NCBI GenBank assembly: GCA_019057385.1
Contig: JAHQJS010000005.1
Coordinates: forward strand, 1-64,000
Origin: Candidatus Borrarchaeum weybense
GTDB lineage: Archaea; Asgardarchaeota; Sifarchaeia; Borrarchaeales; Borrarchaeaceae
DNA: 64,000 bases
Direction: 5' to 3'
Under the pieces are notes generated by a model. That model worked only from the letters and a program-made list of their open reading frames with translations, did not search any database and was not told the DNA's origin. Of the stretch, positions 7,514 to 47,887 are shown one piece after another (positions within the stretch are counted from its first letter, which is position 1; each line of letters begins with the position of its first letter). The translations under genes and the position numbers were made by a program.

Positions 7514-10500
7514 ATGAGTGATCCATTAAACAGTGAATATTTCAAAAATATTGAAGAAAATGTAGAAAAGTCATATGAACTTGCAAAAAAGGCAAGAGAA
7601 AAGAACTTAGATCCCTCACCACTTCCTGAAATAGCCTTAGCAAATGATCTTGCAGCGCGAGTTGAAGGATTGGTTGGGCCAAAAGGTGTTGCGCAGGCTA
7701 TTCGCCAACTTCAAGAGAAACTCGAACGCGAAGAGGTAGCTTTTCAAATAGCAAAAGACATTGTCTATGAGAAATTTGGAAAAATGAGCGATGAAGAAGG
7801 TGCCGAACAAGCAATCCGGACTGCCCTAGCCATTCTTTCTAGTGGAATCACGGCTGCTCCATTAGAAGGTATTGCAAAAGTTAAAATCAAGAAAGGAGCA
7901 GATTCAAAACGTTATTTGAGCATCTATTTTTCTGGACCTATAAGAGCTGCTGGAGGAACAGAGACAGCATTGACCGTACTAGTAGGGGATTTTGTACGAC
8001 GATTGCTGCATCTCGACAGATATAATCCTTCAAGTAATGAAGTCGAACGATATATCGAGGAAGTTGATCTTTACAAACGTGCAGTTCATCTACAATACCC
8101 TTCAATAGATGAAGAAATTCGAAAAGCAGTAGAGCACCTTCCAGTTGAAGTTACTGGTGAACCAACGGAGAAAATAGAAGTATCAGGTTATCGCGATATT
8201 CCTTCTATTGAAACAAATCGTGTCCGTGGAGGAGCTATTCTTGTACTTAATGATGGTATTTTAGGCAAAGCCCATAAACTCCCAAAAATAGTTAGAAAAA
8301 TAGGACTAGAGGGATGGGAATGGTTAAAGAATCTAAAAGAGTTAAAATCCAAAAAAGAAACTGATGCAAGTGATTCAAAACGGATGACAAGTGATAAATA
8401 CCTTGCAGATGTAATTGCAGGTCGTCCAGTATTTGCACATCCCTCTAGACCCGGTGGATTTCGTCCAAGATATGGAAGAGCTCGAAATACGGGACTTGCT
8501 GCTGTTGGAATAAATCCTGCAACAATGGAAATCTTAGACGAATTTCTCGCTACAGGAACTCATGTGGTTACTGAAAGACCAGGAAAGGGTGCGATCGTAG
8601 TTCCAGTAGATAGTATAGAAGGACCAACAGTGAGACTCAAAGGTGGTTCGGTGTGTTCATTCAATAACATCGAAGAAGCACGTTCACATATACATGACAC
8701 AGAAAAAATCCTCTATCTTGGGGATATGCTCATTGCGTATGGGGAATTCTTAGAGAATAATCATCCTCTCATTAATTCAGGATACTGTGAAGAATGGTGG
8801 GTTCTGGAATTAAAGAACGCCTTAATGAAATCATCCCTTACAAAGGAAGATCTTTGTGTGCGTCTCAATATTTCTCCTGAACTTCTAAATCAATATATTG
8901 AAAATCCTTTCAGTATCTATCCGAAACCAATTGAGGCAATTAAACTTTCTCAATTACTAAAAATACCGTTACATCCAAGATATACCTATCTATGGCATGA
9001 TATACTTCCTGAAGAACTTAATAACCTTTTAGAATGGCTTGTGCAAGCAAAGATGGAATATAATGGCGAATTTTGTGCTGAAATACGCGTAATTAATACA
9101 GATTTTACTTCAAAGAATATTCTTGAGAAACTTTGCATCCCACACAGCGTGGGGAAGGATGAGATCGTAATATCTCACCATGCTCCAACATTGGCATATT
9201 GCCTTGGGTTCCAAAAAGATATTACATTAGAGAAGATCCGTTCCAAATTTCAAACGACTCCTATGATGAGGGATGTACTCTTCATAATCAATACCCTTTC
9301 TGACATCGAAGTCAGATCCAAAGCACCCATATTTATTGGAGGGCGCCTAGGACGCCCTGAAAAATCAAAAGCACGTGCTACGTCTCCTCCTGTCCATGTA
9401 CTTTTTCCAGTTGGATTTAATGTAGGTCATAATAGAAATATCGTTGAAATAGCAAAAAAGGGAGATGTTTCTCTTGAGATCGTTCGTAAAGAATGCTCAT
9501 CCTGTCATTATACATCATTTATGAACTTATGTCCAAGATGCGGGCATCAAACTGCTACTGCACTTAAATGCCCTAAATGCCACACGGAGAGTCAAAAAAA
9601 TATCTGTCCTAATTGTAAAACGCCTATTCGAGGATTTGAAACACAAAAGGTTTCTCTTCAGCGAATTCTCGATGAAGCCTTGCGGAAAACTGGAGTTAGA
9701 AACATAGAAAAAGTAAAGGGAGTTAAAGGCTTAACTAGCAAATTTAAACAACCTGAAATACTTGAAAAAGGCATTCTTCGCTCTAAATACGGATTATATG
9801 TGTATAAAGATGGAACAACACGATTTGATGCAACTGATGCGCCCTTAAGTCATTTTAAGCCAAAAGAGATTAAAACATCAATTGAAAAACTCGTAAATCT
9901 TGGATATACTCATGATTATATGGGTAATCCGCTCATTGACGATGATCAAATTCTTGAGTTAAAAGTACAAGATATTGTCATTCACGACGAATGTGGCGAT
10001 TATCTTGTTAACGTTGCCAAATTCATTGATGAATTACTCGTCAAAGTATATGAGCAACCTCCTTTTTACAATATCGTTAAGAAGGAACAATTAATTGGAC
10101 ACCTTGCGATTGGATTAGCACCTCATACCTCTGCAGGTGTCATTGCTCGCATCATTGGATTCACTGAGGCATATGTGTGCTACGCGCACCATTACTTTCA
10201 TGCTGCAAAGCGCCGTAACTGCGACGGAGACGAAGATAGCATTCTCCTCCTTTTAGATGGTCTTCTTAATTTCTCTAAGAAACTACTTCCTGAAAAAAGA
10301 GGAGGAATGATGGATGCGCCCTTAGTTTTGACAGTGTGTTTGGATCCTCATGAAATTGATGATGAATCATACACTGTGGATCAAGTTGCGAATTACTCCT
10401 TAGAATTTTATCAAAAAACGCTTGATAATGTTGACCCAAAAGATATTGAAGATATAATAGATAATGTTGGGCATCGTTTGGATTCTCCAGCACTGTATGC

Positions 10501-10972
10501 AGGTTTCCGATTTTCACATCCTACATCCTCTATTGCGGCGGGACCAAGTTGTACAGCTTACAAGACACTTGACAGTATGGAGAAAAAGGTTATTGCCCAA
10601 CTCAATTTAGCAAAGAAAATCCGTGCAGTGAACGCTAAAGATGTTGCAGAACGTGTATTCTCACACCATCTCCTTCGTGATATTGTGGGGTGTTTAAGAA
10701 GATTTGGTAGGCAGAAAGTAAGATGTACGACTTGTAACAGGAAATATAGACGAATTCCACTCTCCGGAAAATGTCTAAATTGTGGAGGGAAACTAATACT
10801 AACGGTTTCAGAAGGCACTGTTATGAAATATCTTGACTTAGCGGAAAAAATTGTAAATGGCCAAGATCTGGATTTATATCACAAACAACGTATCATTTTG
10901 CTTAAGAAGGCTCTAGAATCTTTGTTTGAAGATGATGCACCAAAACAAGTGAAATTAGGTGAATATATTTAG
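7514..10972 (+). CDS. polC: DNA polymerase D large subunit DP2 (no intein evident)
   Basis: GPIRAAGGT, RYGRARNTG, KDGTTRFD, HAAKRRNCDGDED catalytic motif, Zn-finger modules. Confidence 0.98.
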   Translation: MSDPLNSEYFKNIEENVEKSYELAKKAREKNLDPSPLPEIALANDLAARVEGLVGPKGVAQAIRQLQEKLEREEVAFQIAKDIVYEKFGKMSDEEGAEQAIRTALAILSSGITAAPLEGIAKVKIKKGADSKRYLSIYFSGPIRAAGGTETALTVLVGDFVRRLLHLDRYNPSSNEVERYIEEVDLYKRAVHLQYPSIDEEIRKAVEHLPVEVTGEPTEKIEVSGYRDIPSIETNRVRGGAILVLNDGILGKAHKLPKIVRKIGLEGWEWLKNLKELKSKKETDASDSKRMTSDKYLADVIAGRPVFAHPSRPGGFRPRYGRARNTGLAAVGINPATMEILDEFLATGTHVVTERPGKGAIVVPVDSIEGPTVRLKGGSVCSFNNIEEARSHIHDTEKILYLGDMLIAYGEFLENNHPLINSGYCEEWWVLELKNALMKSSLTKEDLCVRLNISPELLNQYIENPFSIYPKPIEAIKLSQLLKIPLHPRYTYLWHDILPEELNNLLEWLVQAKMEYNGEFCAEIRVINTDFTSKNILEKLCIPHSVGKDEIVISHHAPTLAYCLGFQKDITLEKIRSKFQTTPMMRDVLFIINTLSDIEVRSKAPIFIGGRLGRPEKSKARATSPPVHVLFPVGFNVGHNRNIVEIAKKGDVSLEIVRKECSSCHYTSFMNLCPRCGHQTATALKCPKCHTESQKNICPNCKTPIRGFETQKVSLQRILDEALRKTGVRNIEKVKGVKGLTSKFKQPEILEKGILRSKYGLYVYKDGTTRFDATDAPLSHFKPKEIKTSIEKLVNLGYTHDYMGNPLIDDDQILELKVQDIVIHDECGDYLVNVAKFIDELLVKVYEQPPFYNIVKKEQLIGHLAIGLAPHTSAGVIARIIGFTEAYVCYAHHYFHAAKRRNCDGDEDSILLLLDGLLNFSKKLLPEKRGGMMDAPLVLTVCLDPHEIDDESYTVDQVANYSLEFYQKTLDNVDPKDIEDIIDNVGHRLDSPALYAGFRFSHPTSSIAAGPSCTAYKTLDSMEKKVIAQLNLAKKIRAVNAKDVAERVFSHHLLRDIVGCLRRFGRQKVRCTTCNRKYRRIPLSGKCLNCGGKLILTVSEGTVMKYLDLAEKIVNGQDLDLYHKQRIILLKKALESLFEDDAPKQVKLGEYI

Positions 10973-10994
10973 AAGATGCAAGTTTTTGTTTTAA

Positions 10995-11388
10995 AATTAC
11001 CACGATAAGGAGACCCCTCCAAGTTGTTTGGAGGAGGAATTGTGTGTTTTTGTTTTTAGACATACTACCCTTTCTGCGGACACAGGGGTATATGCCCACG
11101 GGTGTTTTAATGACGGGTACTCTCAAGTCCCGTCGCTCCCAACACCAGGGAGTTGGTTCTCTTCGCCAAAGTAATCAGTCAGTACTATACGATGATCACT
11201 GAGAGTTTCCTCTCTGTTTAAACCACCGTTTACAGAGCAAGGGACTAGAGAAGCATCCCTTAGTATGTTCTTTAACTCTCCGGATAACGTAGATACCGCC
11301 ATGCTTTACCACAGCCTCTCTTAGGCTAATCAACCAATTACTCTCGTTCCTCACGGAACAAGCCCCCACTTGTTAGGGGGTGATTGAC
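10995..11388. mobile_element. Non-autonomous IS200/IS605 (IscB-type) mini-element with internally deleted iscB
   Basis: Hairpin ends cccctccaagttgtttggaggagg (~11014-11037) and CAAG-cccccacttgttaggggg-tgatTGAC (to 11388). Residual ORF 10902..11126(-) starts MRVPVI (IscB-like start) and runs into QFLL..RGLL (IscB-like end) with no PLMP/HNH/RuvC. Left boundary approximate. Confidence 0.78.
11140..11388 (-). ncRNA. HEARO / IscB omega-RNA scaffold
   Basis: Minus strand: GTCAATCACCCCC..GGGGGCTTG..GGTTGATTAGCCTAAG..CTACGTT..GGGATGCTTCTCTAGTCCC..GCTCTG..TTTAAACAG..CAGTG..TTGGCGAAGAGAACC, the ordered conserved blocks of HEARO RNA. Confidence 0.85.
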
Positions 11389-11826
11389 CTCATCGCTAAT
11401 ATACCTCCTCTTGTGTAATAACAAAGATCTCCGTCCCTCAATGGACACTTGAGATCCAGCAGGAGCCCTCATCGGTACTGTTTCTTGTGTACGCCCTTCA
11501 CGCCAAGCCAGACACCTGGGATATCGCATATTGTTATTGTAGTTAACTGCTATTTATGTTGATGGAGAACTGTGTGAAAGTGAAACAAGAAAAAGACGAA
11601 TCTCATCCCCGAGTAAAATCCTATTACTCTAGAAGAGATGAGGATTTTAGGAAGAATCATATAACTATATAAGTTCAGATTTACAAATAAACTATGAATC
11701 TTGCTTGAAAACTGGTGTTTAGCAACTCATATGGAGTTTTTCCATAAAACTAACTTACGAGTTGAAGAAAGCCTTACTTTAGTAAGGATAACTATTATTG
11801 AAATTAAATCTTTTTGAGGGATTCTT

Positions 11827-12681
11827 TTGGAGAAAGCTAGTGACATTATGACTAAAAATGTGGTCTGTGTAACAGTTCCAGGTACACGTGAAGATGTTCT
11901 GCAATTAATCCATGAACACAAGCATTTTGGTTTTCCTGTTGTTAAGAAAGAAGAAAACACGCTTGCAGGAATCATTACTAGAACTGATTTAATGCGAAAA
12001 CCAGATGAAAACCAGATAGCGCTTCTTATGACGCGTGATGTAGTTTCATTAAATAAAGACGCTTCTTTGAAAGAGATTGCTTCAACCCTCTTATCTAACC
12101 GAATTCGTCGTATACCGATAGTTGAGGATGATCAAATAGTAGGTCTCATTACGACTGCCGATATCGTACATAAAACTATCCTACGTGCAAATATCAGTGA
12201 TCCTATTGAGAAACATATGAAGAAAGAAGTTGTTTCTATTTACGAAGGCACCCCATTACCTGTTGCATTGACCATAATGGAATTAGCAAATGTTGAACTT
12301 ATGCCGGTTCTTAATGATGCATCGGAACTTTCAGGTGTCCTTAGTAAGGCGGACCTCTTTTCATCATCTGAAATTATTTCTGAAAGAAGGATCTCCAGCA
12401 TGTCTGCAGAAAGTGAAGGAGACTCATGGTCATGGGATGCCATCCCACAATTAGTAGTCACCAAAAAAGAACTTAGACTTCCTTCAAAACCAGTCTCTGA
12501 AATAATGATAAAAAATGTAATCTCAACATTTGAACAAACTCCTATTAGTGAATGCGCAAAATTAATGAGGAAACATGATATAGACCAAATACCCGTTACA
12601 ACTTTGAATGGCGAACTTGTTGGGATTATACGAGATACTGATTTACTTCAAGCATACTTTGATAAGATCTCTGAAATGTAA
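11827..12681 (+). CDS. CBS domain-containing protein (4 CBS repeats)
   Basis: Repeated 'hPVV....GhhT..Dh' CBS motifs. Confidence 0.9.
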   Translation: MEKASDIMTKNVVCVTVPGTREDVLQLIHEHKHFGFPVVKKEENTLAGIITRTDLMRKPDENQIALLMTRDVVSLNKDASLKEIASTLLSNRIRRIPIVEDDQIVGLITTADIVHKTILRANISDPIEKHMKKEVVSIYEGTPLPVALTIMELANVELMPVLNDASELSGVLSKADLFSSSEIISERRISSMSAESEGDSWSWDAIPQLVVTKKELRLPSKPVSEIMIKNVISTFEQTPISECAKLMRKHDIDQIPVTTLNGELVGIIRDTDLLQAYFDKISEM

Positions 12682-12849
12682 ATCCCAAAACAGATTCAAT
12701 GTTTTTTAAAGATGATTGAGGACACATCCTTTATTTGACCTATTGCCTTGCAGGGACATTTCTAATCGAAAGATTAAATAATCAAAAAGGTCTACCGAAT
12801 TCAATCTCTCCATAAATGAATGGATGTTGTTTCCTGCGGTGAAATAATA

Positions 12850-13980
12850 ATGAGAAAAATTGCACAAAATAGGTCTATAGTGCTTTTCTTCATGCTTTCC
12901 ATTTTACTAATTCAACTTACTGGCACTTTCATGTCACAGGATGTGTATGCTGATGAAAAAACAATTATCCTTTTTGATCAAGTTCATTTACAGTTTTATA
13001 CGTCGGAACGAATGCAATCAGCGATAACATCATTAAATAATACTGAAGATTTCATAGTTTATTTCAATGATCAACGTTTTACTGAAACATCACTTCTTGG
13101 CGTGGATATCCTCGTTATAGAAAATCCAGAACGATCCTTTTCTTTGCAGGAACGTTTAGTTTTAGTCGAGTATCTAGACAATGGTGGAAATATTTTCTTA
13201 CTGGCCGACCCTCGTGGCACAATTTCTAATCTGAATAATATCATAGATGCTGTTCAATATACAGATGGACGCTTTTCTCAACACGTTATTTTTGACGAAG
13301 AGTTCAATCAAAATAATATTTCCACACAAATCAGTGTTTCTCGTGAAGAATTGCGAGAAAGTAGCCCACTCACAAACGGTGTCAAAGAAATTATTACACA
13401 TTCAATTTCGATCGAAGATGACGATCCTAACAAAGTTATTGCAACAGGAAGCAACTATTCACTCGCAGGACTAGAAGGAAAAAGCCAACCAGCTTGGCTT
13501 GTTGCATCTACGGTTGGACGATCTCGAATTGTCCTATGTGGTTCCACAAGGATGTTTAGTGATGTTAAACCAAGTAAATCTGAAGTTACATGGTATCAAA
13601 CAAAAGATAATGCACGTCTTTGGCAAAATATCTTCTCATGGCTAGCTCAAAAGGAAATACCGCCCTCATTTCTAGGCACAACACTTCCACCTCCACTTAC
13701 TTTAATTATATCAGCTTTTATTGCAGGGATCGTGTTCATCGGTGGGGGTTTTAGTCTCTATTATCTACTTCAACAAAAAGAACTGAAGCCAGTATCGGAA
13801 ATATTAAGACGAAAGAAGAAAGCGGAGAAGTTAGAACCAACCCCAGAGGAAGAAATTGCGCAAATTGAAGGTGAGAAGGCCATTTCAATAGATGATGAAG
13901 AAATAATAACTGAAGAGAAACCTGCTCCTCCGAAAAAGAAGAAAAAGAGAAAAAAGCGGACATATAGAGTTCGTCGATAG
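12850..13980 (+). CDS. Type I membrane protein with GldG/IFT52 (DUF4350, GATase-like) extracellular domain and charged cytoplasmic tail
   Basis: Signal peptide; 'ILFDQVH', 'DILVI..P...FS..E...L..Y..NGG', 'N.RL..NI..WL'; C-terminal TM; acidic then poly-Lys/Arg tail. ORF track start is 12820. Confidence 0.65.
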   Translation: MRKIAQNRSIVLFFMLSILLIQLTGTFMSQDVYADEKTIILFDQVHLQFYTSERMQSAITSLNNTEDFIVYFNDQRFTETSLLGVDILVIENPERSFSLQERLVLVEYLDNGGNIFLLADPRGTISNLNNIIDAVQYTDGRFSQHVIFDEEFNQNNISTQISVSREELRESSPLTNGVKEIITHSISIEDDDPNKVIATGSNYSLAGLEGKSQPAWLVASTVGRSRIVLCGSTRMFSDVKPSKSEVTWYQTKDNARLWQNIFSWLAQKEIPPSFLGTTLPPPLTLIISAFIAGIVFIGGGFSLYYLLQQKELKPVSEILRRKKKAEKLEPTPEEEIAQIEGEKAISIDDEEIITEEKPAPPKKKKKRKKRTYRVRR

Positions 13981-22983: not shown

Positions 22984-24282
22984 ATGCAACAATTGATTAC
23001 GGTATTGTCGATATCAACAACAAAAAACGAGACGATCAAAGCCACCTTGAAAGCTACTAAAGAAAGACGAAAACGTCAAACCTGTAGGGTGTTTGAGCTA
23101 AAAATCGACAGCTCCCATCTTAACCATCACACCAAAGAACATTTGAAACGCTTATTTCTGGAAGCCAAATGGTTGTATAACTATATTCTCTCGCAGCATA
23201 ACGTGTTTGATACGGATTATAAACTCTCTGAAGTGCCTGTCAAAGTCAAGGATAATTTTGAACTCCGCGAACTACGTCATCTCTCCTCACACATGAAACA
23301 GAGTCTCATTAAGCGAACTATGGACAATATCAAGGGATTGACACGCTTAAAAGCTAACGGACGCAAAATTGGCAGACTCACATTCAAGAGTTATGTTAAT
23401 TCAATCCCCTTGAAACAATCCGGAAATACCTACCGCATACTGAATGACAAATACATCAGGATACAAGGTATCTCACAACAACTACGTGTCAATGGCTTAA
23501 CTCAAATTCCTCGCGGCAGTGAACTGGCAAATGCGACCTTAATCCAGCGGCATGGCGACTACTTCGTAACAATCACCATCTACCAGACGCGGGAACACAC
23601 AACACCCCCTTCGAAAACGGTAGGCATAGATTTCGGAGTTAAAACACAGTTAACGCTTTCAGACGGCATTGCCATCCAGTATGTAATCCCCATTAGCAAC
23701 AAATTAAGAAAATTGCACCAGAAATTAAGTCGCTGTCAATTTCGCAGCAAGAATTGGTATAAAACCAAGTGTAAACTGGAAAAAGCCTATGCTAAGGTTA
23801 ACAATATCAAGAAAGACGTCAAGAACAAACTAGTCCATTATCTACACACTACTTATGGGATAGTGTGTTATCAGGATGAGAACATCAAGGCGTGGCAACG
23901 CTTATGGGGCAGAAAAATCGTATCCACCGCTATCGGAGGGATCATACGCACACTTGAAGTAAAGGTGCATACTCCGATCAAAGTCGATAGGTTTTTCCCC
24001 TCCACCAAAACCTGTTCGCGCTGTGGAAATATCCGTGACATCGGATTGGATGAACGAATCTATACCTGTCCAGTCTGTGGGTTAGTGATGGACAGAGATC
24101 ATAATGCAAGTGTTAACCTAGATAACGAAGGATTAAAACAACTTGTACCTACGGGACGTAGGGATGTTAAGCCTGTGGAGACTGAATCCTCTACTTTGGC
24201 ATCGCTGGAATACTTAAACGGTATTCCCTATGTGAAAGCAAGTTCGGTCTGCGAAGCAGGAAGCCTCATCGCTTCAGCGTGA
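22984..24282 (+). CDS. tnpB: RNA-guided endonuclease TnpB
   Basis: GIDFGVK (RuvC-I), FFPSTKTCSRCG..CPVCG Zn finger, DRDHNASVN (RuvC-III). Confidence 0.95.
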   Translation: MQQLITVLSISTTKNETIKATLKATKERRKRQTCRVFELKIDSSHLNHHTKEHLKRLFLEAKWLYNYILSQHNVFDTDYKLSEVPVKVKDNFELRELRHLSSHMKQSLIKRTMDNIKGLTRLKANGRKIGRLTFKSYVNSIPLKQSGNTYRILNDKYIRIQGISQQLRVNGLTQIPRGSELANATLIQRHGDYFVTITIYQTREHTTPPSKTVGIDFGVKTQLTLSDGIAIQYVIPISNKLRKLHQKLSRCQFRSKNWYKTKCKLEKAYAKVNNIKKDVKNKLVHYLHTTYGIVCYQDENIKAWQRLWGRKIVSTAIGGIIRTLEVKVHTPIKVDRFFPSTKTCSRCGNIRDIGLDERIYTCPVCGLVMDRDHNASVNLDNEGLKQLVPTGRRDVKPVETESSTLASLEYLNGIPYVKASSVCEAGSLIASA

Positions 24283-46735: not shown

Positions 46736-47887
46736 CCTACGCCCTTCGTGTTCTAGCACACAACTGCTGTTATAATCACGGTCTATCACTAGACCACAGT
46801 GGTGACATGCATAGGTGCGTTCGGCTAAACTCATGGGGCGCTGATGACCGCAACGCGAACAAGTCTTTGTGGAGGGGAAGAAACGGTCAATTTCCACCGG
46901 TGTATGCACCTTTATTTCAAGCATGCGAATGATTCCACCGAGGCTGGTTGACAGCATTCTTCTACCCCACAGGCGTTGCCAGGCGCCTAAATTCTCATTT
47001 TGATAACATACTACTTGAAAATTGGTGTAGAGGTAATGAACGAGTTTATTGCGGATGTCTCGTTTAATATTGGTGGTTTTGGCGTAGGCTTTGAGCAACT
47101 TATATAACGTTTTCCACCAGTTCTTACTACGATACTGTTTACGACTAAATTGCTTACACAACTGCTTTATCCGGCGTGTAACTGGTATCTTGTATCGTAT
47201 ACGTATCCCATTCGACAGCGATAACTGATTCTTTACCCCAAAATCAATGCCAATTGATTTGACTGGCGCTACCACCACCGGTCTGCTTTCTCGCGGAGTA
47301 TAGGTGGTTATTGCTATGTAATACTCGCCATTCTGGTGAAGTAAGGTGGCATTAGCATATTCACAATTGGATGGTAGTTGTTCTAAACCGTTGACACGCA
47401 GTTTTTGCGGCATCTTTTGAAGCTGCAAGTATTTGCTATTGATGAGCTTGTAGGTATTGCCGTACTGCTTGAGTGGGGTGGACTTCACATACGACTTAAA
47501 TTTCAACCACCCAATCTTGTGACCCTTGGCTTTCAGACGTGCTAAGCCACGGATATTCTGCTGGGTGCGCTTAATGATGCTCTGACGTACTTGCGCCGGT
47601 AAATGCCTTAATTGGCGCAGCTCAAACCGGTCTTTCACCTTCATCGGGACGGCTGTTATTGTATCATCGATAGAGAACACGTTAGGATGCCCAACACAGT
47701 AATTATAAAGCCATTTAGCTTCCAAGAATAATCGATTTAAGTGAGTTAATGAGTCTTGGTTTAAATGTGAGCGGTCTAGCTTCACGGTATACACCCGGCA
47801 CACCATGTGTTTACGCCGCTCCTTAGTGTCCTTCAAGGTAGCTTTGATCCGCTGGTTCTTTGTTGACATGACACAAGTGCTCCGCAC
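46598..47887 (-). CDS. tnpB: RNA-guided endonuclease TnpB
   Basis: GIDFGVK, FFPSTKTCSRCG..CHHCG, DRDYNS; clear paralog of 22984..24282. Confidence 0.95.
   Translation of the reverse strand: MRSTCVMSTKNQRIKATLKDTKERRKHMVCRVYTVKLDRSHLNQDSLTHLNRLFLEAKWLYNYCVGHPNVFSIDDTITAVPMKVKDRFELRQLRHLPAQVRQSIIKRTQQNIRGLARLKAKGHKIGWLKFKSYVKSTPLKQYGNTYKLINSKYLQLQKMPQKLRVNGLEQLPSNCEYANATLLHQNGEYYIAITTYTPRESRPVVVAPVKSIGIDFGVKNQLSLSNGIRIRYKIPVTRRIKQLCKQFSRKQYRSKNWWKTLYKLLKAYAKTTNIKRDIRNKLVHYLYTNFQVVCYQNENLGAWQRLWGRRMLSTSLGGIIRMLEIKVHTPVEIDRFFPSTKTCSRCGHQRPMSLAERTYACHHCGLVIDRDYNSSCVLEHEGRRLLGRGPTEVTPVETNTSTLMLEYLNQIAYVEASMVAETGSLTALA

Follow-up and report, generated by a model that had tools for sequence, protein, structure and literature searches.

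Stand-alone IscB omega RNAs that work with IscB have been described in the passages of Hirano et al. (2022, PMC9581776, citing Altae-Tran et al. 2021) that deal with them, and protein-less derivatives of IS200/IS605 elements, known as PATEs and often encoding omega RNAs, have been reported by Meers et al. (bioRxiv 10.1101/2023.03.14.532601). According to the latter work, an element is excised only when its target motif is cognate and pairs with the left-end DNA guide, and it can be regained by what was described in 2023 as 'restorative homing'. In ISC transposons, target sites N/ATGA and GT/GA have been found, including those of the archaeon Methanosarcina, and the termini are shared with TnpB elements (Kapitonov, Makarova and Koonin 2016, PMC4810608). 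Picinato et al. (2025, PMC12558985) reported that omega RNAs of TnpB-type elements occur in circular form in Halobacteria and Sulfolobales; we found no report in the literature of a circular omega RNA of the IscB type. Here we compare with these systems an insertion in the genome of an Asgard archaeon (4.18 Mb, 8 contigs), which lies within a stretch of 64 kb (the window, whose numbering is used throughout unless a contig is named).

The only Rfam match in the window was HEARO (RF02033), the IscB omega-RNA scaffold, at 11152-11388 on the minus strand. In the covariance-model search it reached 116 bits (E 3e-23), the gathering score being 83, and the match took in model positions 1-211 of 211, and no RNA family besides HEARO was found in 10900-11850 at E<=1. 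An earlier note on this DNA had recognised here an IscB-type omega RNA on a mini-element of about 390 bp without iscB, and had proposed this covariance check; both the full-length match and the borders described next, 394 bp apart and enclosing no protein gene, agree with it. BLAST of the region against the host genome disclosed 8 sibling copies of about 400 bp that were 80-89% identical and had a common 3' end and unrelated 5' flanks, so that at least nine copies share this architecture when the one studied here is included. The sibling alignment and an empty orthologous site placed the whole mini-element at 10995-11388 (minus strand). At the border at 11388 the similarity to the 8 siblings breaks off sharply at GTCAATCACC (GTCAAT), beyond which the 5' flank is unrelated in every copy, while in the alignment the other border falls about 22-26 nt past a C-rich hairpin. 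The limits given in the earlier note, 10995 and 11410, correspond to the exact element end and to a point that takes in the guide.

If the element is read as a transposon, its top strand is the plus strand of the window and its left and right ends fall at 10995 and 11388, respectively. Sub-terminal hairpins are present at both element ends and inverted terminal repeats are absent. The right-end hairpin (CCCCC/GGGGG, 11363-11380, minus strand) lies inside the HEARO outer stem, and the left-end one was placed at 11014-11036 (minus strand) by the hairpin reading of the mini copies; both are present, in line with the earlier note. The omega scaffold abuts the transposon right end and the guide is the flank immediately 5' of it; in omega-RNA orientation, the scaffold plus two further hairpins fill element positions 1-273. 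On the minus strand, the right-end hairpin is flanked by CTTG (11359-11362; CAAG on the top strand) and GTCA (11385-11388; TGAC on the top strand). Such tetranucleotides follow in IS608 a guide-cleavage pairing rule. The earlier remark that CAAG and TGAC fit this rule was backed by covariation between element types, since the IscB type displays CAAG...TGAC and both the TnpB-type protein-less family described below and the tnpA-bearing IS605 display GAAG...TCAC.

We found no protein gene in the element, the longest frame (10902-11126, 74 aa) being without a Pfam match. Similarly, there was no RRXRR match within 400 nt of the scaffold and hence no iscB directly downstream, which makes the element an orphan and leaves its membership of the RNA family unaffected. 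The neighbouring gene, for the large subunit DP2 of PolD (7514-10972, plus strand; Pfam PF24846, PF24844 and PF03833), runs towards the omega RNA and stops 22 nt short of the element; this is the gene whose 3' end had been noted earlier under the name polC. We believe, with good confidence in the explanation as a whole, that 10995-11388 is a non-autonomous element of the IS200/IS605 family and of the IscB ('ISC') type, which has both ends and a complete omega-RNA gene and from which the nuclease gene is absent.

The history of the insertion can be read from related genomes. The polD-CBS intergenic site carries no element in three genomes of the same genus (G004, G001 and G003). In omega-RNA orientation the empty site of G004 reads ...GGAT/ATCACGCAGGAGTGAGGTATATTAGCGATGAG/ATGAAACTAAG, i.e. 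guide/ATGAAAC, and its comparison with the filled site revealed no target duplication. The guide region in the native flank, 5'-(AGG)TATATTAGCGATGAG-3' (15-18 nt; 11389-11406, minus strand), was delimited with the help of this empty site and of the RNA contigs considered below. Since the 19 nt that immediately precede the scaffold on its 5' side recur unchanged in the G004 empty site, the guide is native DNA, in agreement with the earlier proposal that it is taken from the flank. The insertion happened after the split from the sequenced congeners, between the native guide sequence and an ATGA-type target motif. When the guide was searched against the host genome, which is one part of the search that had been suggested, it was unique at 16 nt and at 20 nt, with no second match.

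The earlier note had also proposed that the first and last codons of iscB remain in the element, and here the two ends fared differently. At 11109-11126 (minus strand) the sequence TTG AGA GTA CCC GTC ATT resembles the first six iscB codons: the element frame begins TTG-RVPVI and the iscB of full-length copies begins (TTG) LRVPIYV. The same letters lie in a hairpin (GACGGG/CCCGTC), the second of the two that follow the scaffold, whose stem is GACGGG/CCCGTC in orphans versus GATAGG/CCTATC in iscB-linked loci. Because orphan and iscB-linked stems differ by paired changes, the segment is RNA structure as much as coding remnant. The supposed C-terminus (QFLL..RGLL) was rejected, as full-length iscB stops before the end hairpin and QFLL..RGLL falls within that non-coding hairpin; indeed, the homology of the last 50 nt or so of the element is with the non-coding end of three full-length copies, beyond the stop codon of iscB. 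An iscB 3' remnant in the middle segment of about 75 nt was likewise rejected, local alignment to iscB interiors being within shuffled controls and global alignment amounting to noise.

We then compared the left end with those of other copies. The target motif of 19 other elements, read in omega-RNA orientation, was ATGA in 10, ATAA in 6 and GTGA in 3, with A or G at position 1 in all 19 (19/19). In the 10995-11388 copy this position is T, and the target-adjacent site (10991-10994, minus strand) reads TTAA, the cognate motif being the ATGA of the G004 empty site. A first reading of the left border as .../GTAA had made TTAC the target motif, as in IS608; it was rejected because the G004 border lies 4-6 nt further out and the motif there is ATGA. 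The motif covaries with the 4-mer that follows the left-end hairpin (TCTC with ATGA, TCTT with ATAA and CTTC with GTGA), and on this basis we presume that TCTC at 11010-11013 (minus strand; top-strand GAGA) serves as DNA guide to the target motif. In this copy, TCTC predicts ATGA but TTAA stands at the motif, and the cognate pairing is lost. With TTAA in place of ATGA, both excision by TnpA and re-cleavage of the joint by IscB are doubtful, and the mismatch argues for the immobilisation of this copy and not for its exclusion from the family. Moreover, two private substitutions (11282 and 11173) break pairs in one long-range helix of the scaffold, 9 nt present in the variable hairpin of most siblings are missing, and the HEARO score of 116 is the third-lowest of the nine sibling copies. 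The copy has thus probably been immobilised, its motif decayed and two of its scaffold pairs broken, and it may be inert as a transposon, with a guide that has no other match in the genome.

These observations could be taken further, to mean that the insertion is a decaying transposon fossil whose RNA, if made, is an inconsequential by-product that is not loaded into IscB. The mutation of the target motif to TTAA, the two broken pairs with their lower bit score and the match of the guide to its own flank only are all in line with this, as is a truncated element next door, which shows that the locus accumulates junk. On the other hand, the scaffold is still a full-length and high-scoring HEARO, and further evidence on this point comes from the orphan class as a whole and from RNA libraries (below).

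The neighbouring truncated element is a second insertion of 198 bp (11420-11617, minus strand), identified by alignment with five full copies as a member, cut short on either side, of a protein-less IS605-type family of about 335 bp, and absent from the same three congeners. It is on the same strand as the omega RNA, ends 31 nt upstream of the scaffold and meets native DNA through an 11-nt filler (agatctttgtt). The five full copies in the host genome are at C4:1217950-1218128, C7:366737-366917, C7:236407-236587, C4:85602-85781 and C8:187459-187639, each continuing for about 150 nt on the element's 3' side. In this family TTTAT precedes the left-end hairpin, and the right-end hairpin is followed by TAGTTCAC up to the border. 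Its left end is similar to the one found in IscB elements, and the sole tnpA-bearing IS605 (C7:194149-195880) has the identical right-end tail. The family may encode an omega RNA of the TnpB type. Within the insert, a 37-nt stretch (11574-11610) recurs with about 84% identity at seven other sites, or at about a dozen when partial matches are counted in; at least five of the recurrences are roughly 600 nt upstream of a tnpB OrfB_IS605 domain, at what is presumably the left end of a TnpB element. Elsewhere in the window there are two tnpB genes, at about 23584-24120 (plus strand) and 46760-47281 (minus strand), with open frames of 438 and 430 aa. We also observed at 12820-13980 (plus strand) a gene whose 386-aa product weakly matches ABC_transp_aux, IFT52 GIFT and OST48_N, among which IFT52 GIFT alone passes the curated cut-off; the product may be a eukaryote-like signature protein.

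To place the element in its genomic population, HEARO, RRXRR/IscB and Y1 transposase matches were counted in the host genome, with totals of 36, 16 and 1, respectively. An iscB gene lies 28-75 nt downstream of 16 of the 36 HEARO matches, and the other 20 have no iscB within 400 nt. Orphan scaffolds, at 94.6-134 bits, were on a par with the iscB-linked ones, at 116.8-134.9. The search for iscB and for sibling mini-elements advised in the earlier note was therefore productive on both counts, with 16 RRXRR/IscB matches and at least 8 siblings. At least 11-12 of the 16 IscB genes are close relatives whose omega scaffolds are 84-91% identical to 11152-11388. The representative IscB that was analysed combines an RRXRR with an HNH domain, can be aligned with solved IscB structures and keeps the GVDIG, CxxCG...VEHIxP and NDA motifs intact; its nearest relatives, at 76-85% identity, come from Candidatus Borrarchaeum/Borrarchaeota and from Promethearchaeota MAGs, which fits an Asgard host. 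The sole Y1_Tnp gene (C7:194149-194619) stands beside a tnpB and has a right-end tail similar to the one given above for the second family, and the single tnpA is to be set against about 40 TnpB matches in the genome. In four congeners the numbers of HEARO/RRXRR matches were 37/26, 5/2, 12/4 and 9/6, and both are sporadic elsewhere in the phylum. Separately, we noted a full-length element at C6:787599-788402 (minus strand) whose scaffold is the closest to those of the minis (90.6% identity) and whose iscB has an in-frame TGA, which suggests that the nearest full-length relative of the minis is probably defective too.

The orphans have in common a feature that iscB-linked loci lack. In the element studied here it is a two-tier hairpin at 11060-11090 (minus strand), which we call the 3' module, with the motif CCUGUGUCCGCAGAAAGGG at 11068-11086 and with the RNA 3' end, as deduced below, at 11069-11072. 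Its motif CCUGUnnnCGCAGAAAGGG was present in 18/20 orphans versus 0/16 iscB-linked loci, 65-88 nt past the HEARO end, and all 14 near-exact matches in the host genome (14/14) were in orphans, for example at C7:124292-124310, C6:391957-391975 and C4:705662-705680. The hairpin depicted some compensatory change (e.g. AU/UA 10:5 and CG/UA 15:2), and the orphans bearing the motif span at least three HEARO subfamilies. Among other genomes, the module motif was found in 4/4 congeners and occurred two times in G030, a more distant genome without any HEARO match. A common orphan-only module across subfamilies makes the orphans look like an established non-autonomous lineage and not like recent independent deletions. 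The wording of the earlier note, by which iscB had been deleted, does not hold in the sense of a simple recent deletion, as the element is one of a lineage that has a 3' module of its own. That the orphan class as a whole keeps both its scaffold quality and this conserved module also speaks against the reading of 10995-11388 as a fossil with an inconsequential RNA.

Evidence at the RNA level was sought in public sequencing runs. Parts of the stretch were found in 20 of them, including six wetland metatranscriptomes, and two DNA runs (X1 and X7) were compared with two RNA runs from among the latter (X15 and X17); uncovered stretches were not counted as evidence on their own, and only covered or bridged parts were relied on. 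The sediment DNA of X1 covered the whole stretch, without differences in the unique flanks and with very high depth over the repeat, and the marine-sediment DNA of X7 covered the repeat and the polD side, with gaps elsewhere. In X15 and X17 contig depth was confined to 11069-11406, polD and the CBS gene having none. The RNA contigs keep the guide letters of 11389-11406 unchanged, as well as the 3' extension proper to this copy with its 9-nt shorter form. In both RNA runs, position 11403 (or 11406, 3 nt being ambiguous) is joined back to 11069 (or 11072). This joint was absent from the DNA runs X1 and X7, and the junction sequence was absent from the host genome. X15 contains a second junction, in which another guide (AAGTACATTAAG) meets this same 3' position, the X15 contig being chimeric between the two guides; since AAGTACATTAAG adjoins no scaffold in the host genome, it stems from another organism's copy.

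The simplest reading of these contigs is a discrete RNA of about 335 nt, with a guide of 15-18 nt and a 3' end ...GCAGAAAGG in the orphan module, which is circular or head-to-tail in cDNA. They are assembled contigs, strandless and without read counts, from two runs that may belong to one sampling campaign. At the four private scaffold positions of this copy, 11173, 11262, 11265 and 11282, and at its 2-nt loop deletion they show the family-consensus letters, from which it follows that the RNA may come from a close relative's copy of the same insertion or that variants were collapsed in assembly. By eye, there was no TATA-like box at about -26 from 11403-11406 and no archaeal promoter was identified. 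The back-joints could be artefacts of assembly cycles or of template switching by reverse transcriptase, no circular RNA existing, and to this we give almost as much credit as to its contrary. Only two contigs, both from short-read graph assemblies, carry the joint; its 3-nt microhomology (CCT) is typical of template switching, and one of the contigs is a chimera. Nevertheless, the same joint occurs in two runs and is missing from the DNA runs, a second guide shares its 3' position, and other archaea are known to have circular omega RNAs from TnpB-type elements (PMC12558985). Template switching from end to end, too, would still report the true RNA ends.

The discrete, end-defined RNA from the insertion, in libraries where the flanking genes give no signal, is also at odds with a mere fossil. 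A HEARO match and IscB genes have been found, and strandless RNA contigs, with consensus letters at the private sites of this copy, point to a transcript, so that none of the absences which the earlier note would have taken as refuting applies. Taking both sides together, we consider it unlikely that the element is just a decaying fossil with an inconsequential RNA. As to the orphan lineage, we put forward only tentatively, as something possible but not probable, that the protein-less IscB elements of the genus are more than deletion products and form a specialised lineage in which the common 3' module, acquired across at least three omega-RNA subfamilies, sets the RNA 3' end, and whose guide RNAs of about 335 nt are circularised.

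A different proposal would be that the host has domesticated the guide RNA for its own use, for instance in regulation through guided IscB or in defence against viruses or plasmids bearing the target. It could draw on the excess of orphans over iscB genes (20 versus 16), on the conserved orphan-only module and on the presence of the RNA in the environment. Yet the guide is the native intergenic flank, identical in the congener's empty site, and as such it reflects the landing place and not a selected target; besides, it has no second match in the genome, and the insertion is species-specific and not conserved. We judge a domesticated guide to be very improbable.

Returning to a mobile but non-autonomous element, the following scheme is suggested for the family. 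The single TnpA would mobilise these elements in trans, reading their ends through the pairing of DNA guide and motif. IscB from the 12-16 intact loci would bind the orphan omega RNA, which could be loaded into the nuclease and direct cutting in trans. After excision, the guide would make IscB cut the empty donor joint (guide plus ATGA), and recombination would then restore the element, in the manner of the restorative homing of Meers et al. The 10995-11388 copy, with its motif now TTAA and two scaffold pairs broken, is probably locked in place and drifting, though apparently still transcribed.

Stand-alone omega RNAs are a natural intermediate between a guide and a nuclease that travel together and a guide and a nuclease that are separate, as in CRISPR, and a genome in which 20 orphans exceed 16 nucleases with scaffold quality kept is a good natural case of that separation. 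The known mechanism of IscB is left unchanged by this copy. Should the specialised lineage with circular guides be real, it would amount to a stable pool of trans-acting guides outnumbering the nuclease genes, and it would be the first case of a circular omega RNA of the IscB type as well as of OMEGA activity in Asgard archaea supported at the RNA level.

Compared with the stand-alone omega RNAs as presented in the relevant passages of PMC9581776, the locus has the same HEARO-type scaffold, a 5' guide derived from the flank and no adjacent iscB, with IscB encoded elsewhere in the genome; it differs from what those passages describe in that the host is an Asgard archaeon, the orphans form a lineage with their own 3' module and the role with IscB is putative. 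With the PATEs of Meers et al. (2023) it shares both hairpin ends, the lack of a gene, multiple copies, the pairing of target motif and DNA guide and a transposase that would act in trans, and, like the IscB elements of that work, it has an omega RNA whose limit is the right end; whereas those PATEs are mostly of the TnpB type and from Geobacillus, the present element is an archaeal one of the IscB type, in a copy whose motif is non-cognate. It belongs to the same family of IscB-bearing IS605-like elements as the ISC transposons, but iscB is absent here and the copies catalogued in PMC4810608 were protein-coding. As with the circular omega RNAs of Picinato et al. (2025, PMC12558985), the contigs point to a junction of 3' to 5' end at the RNA level, which takes in part of the guide and lacks an evident bulge-helix-bulge; those RNAs are of the TnpB type and were validated by RNase R and RT-PCR, in contrast to an IscB-type orphan known from two assembled metatranscriptome contigs. 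The earlier note had considered such an element poorly documented in Asgard archaea, which is fair for the host group, but the kind as such had been described (PMC9581776 and bioRxiv 10.1101/2023.03.14.532601). The kind of element is already known and its Asgard archaeal member is newly described; what is new here is the proof by an empty site, the decay of the target motif, the orphan-only 3' module and a locus-specific, possibly circular RNA.
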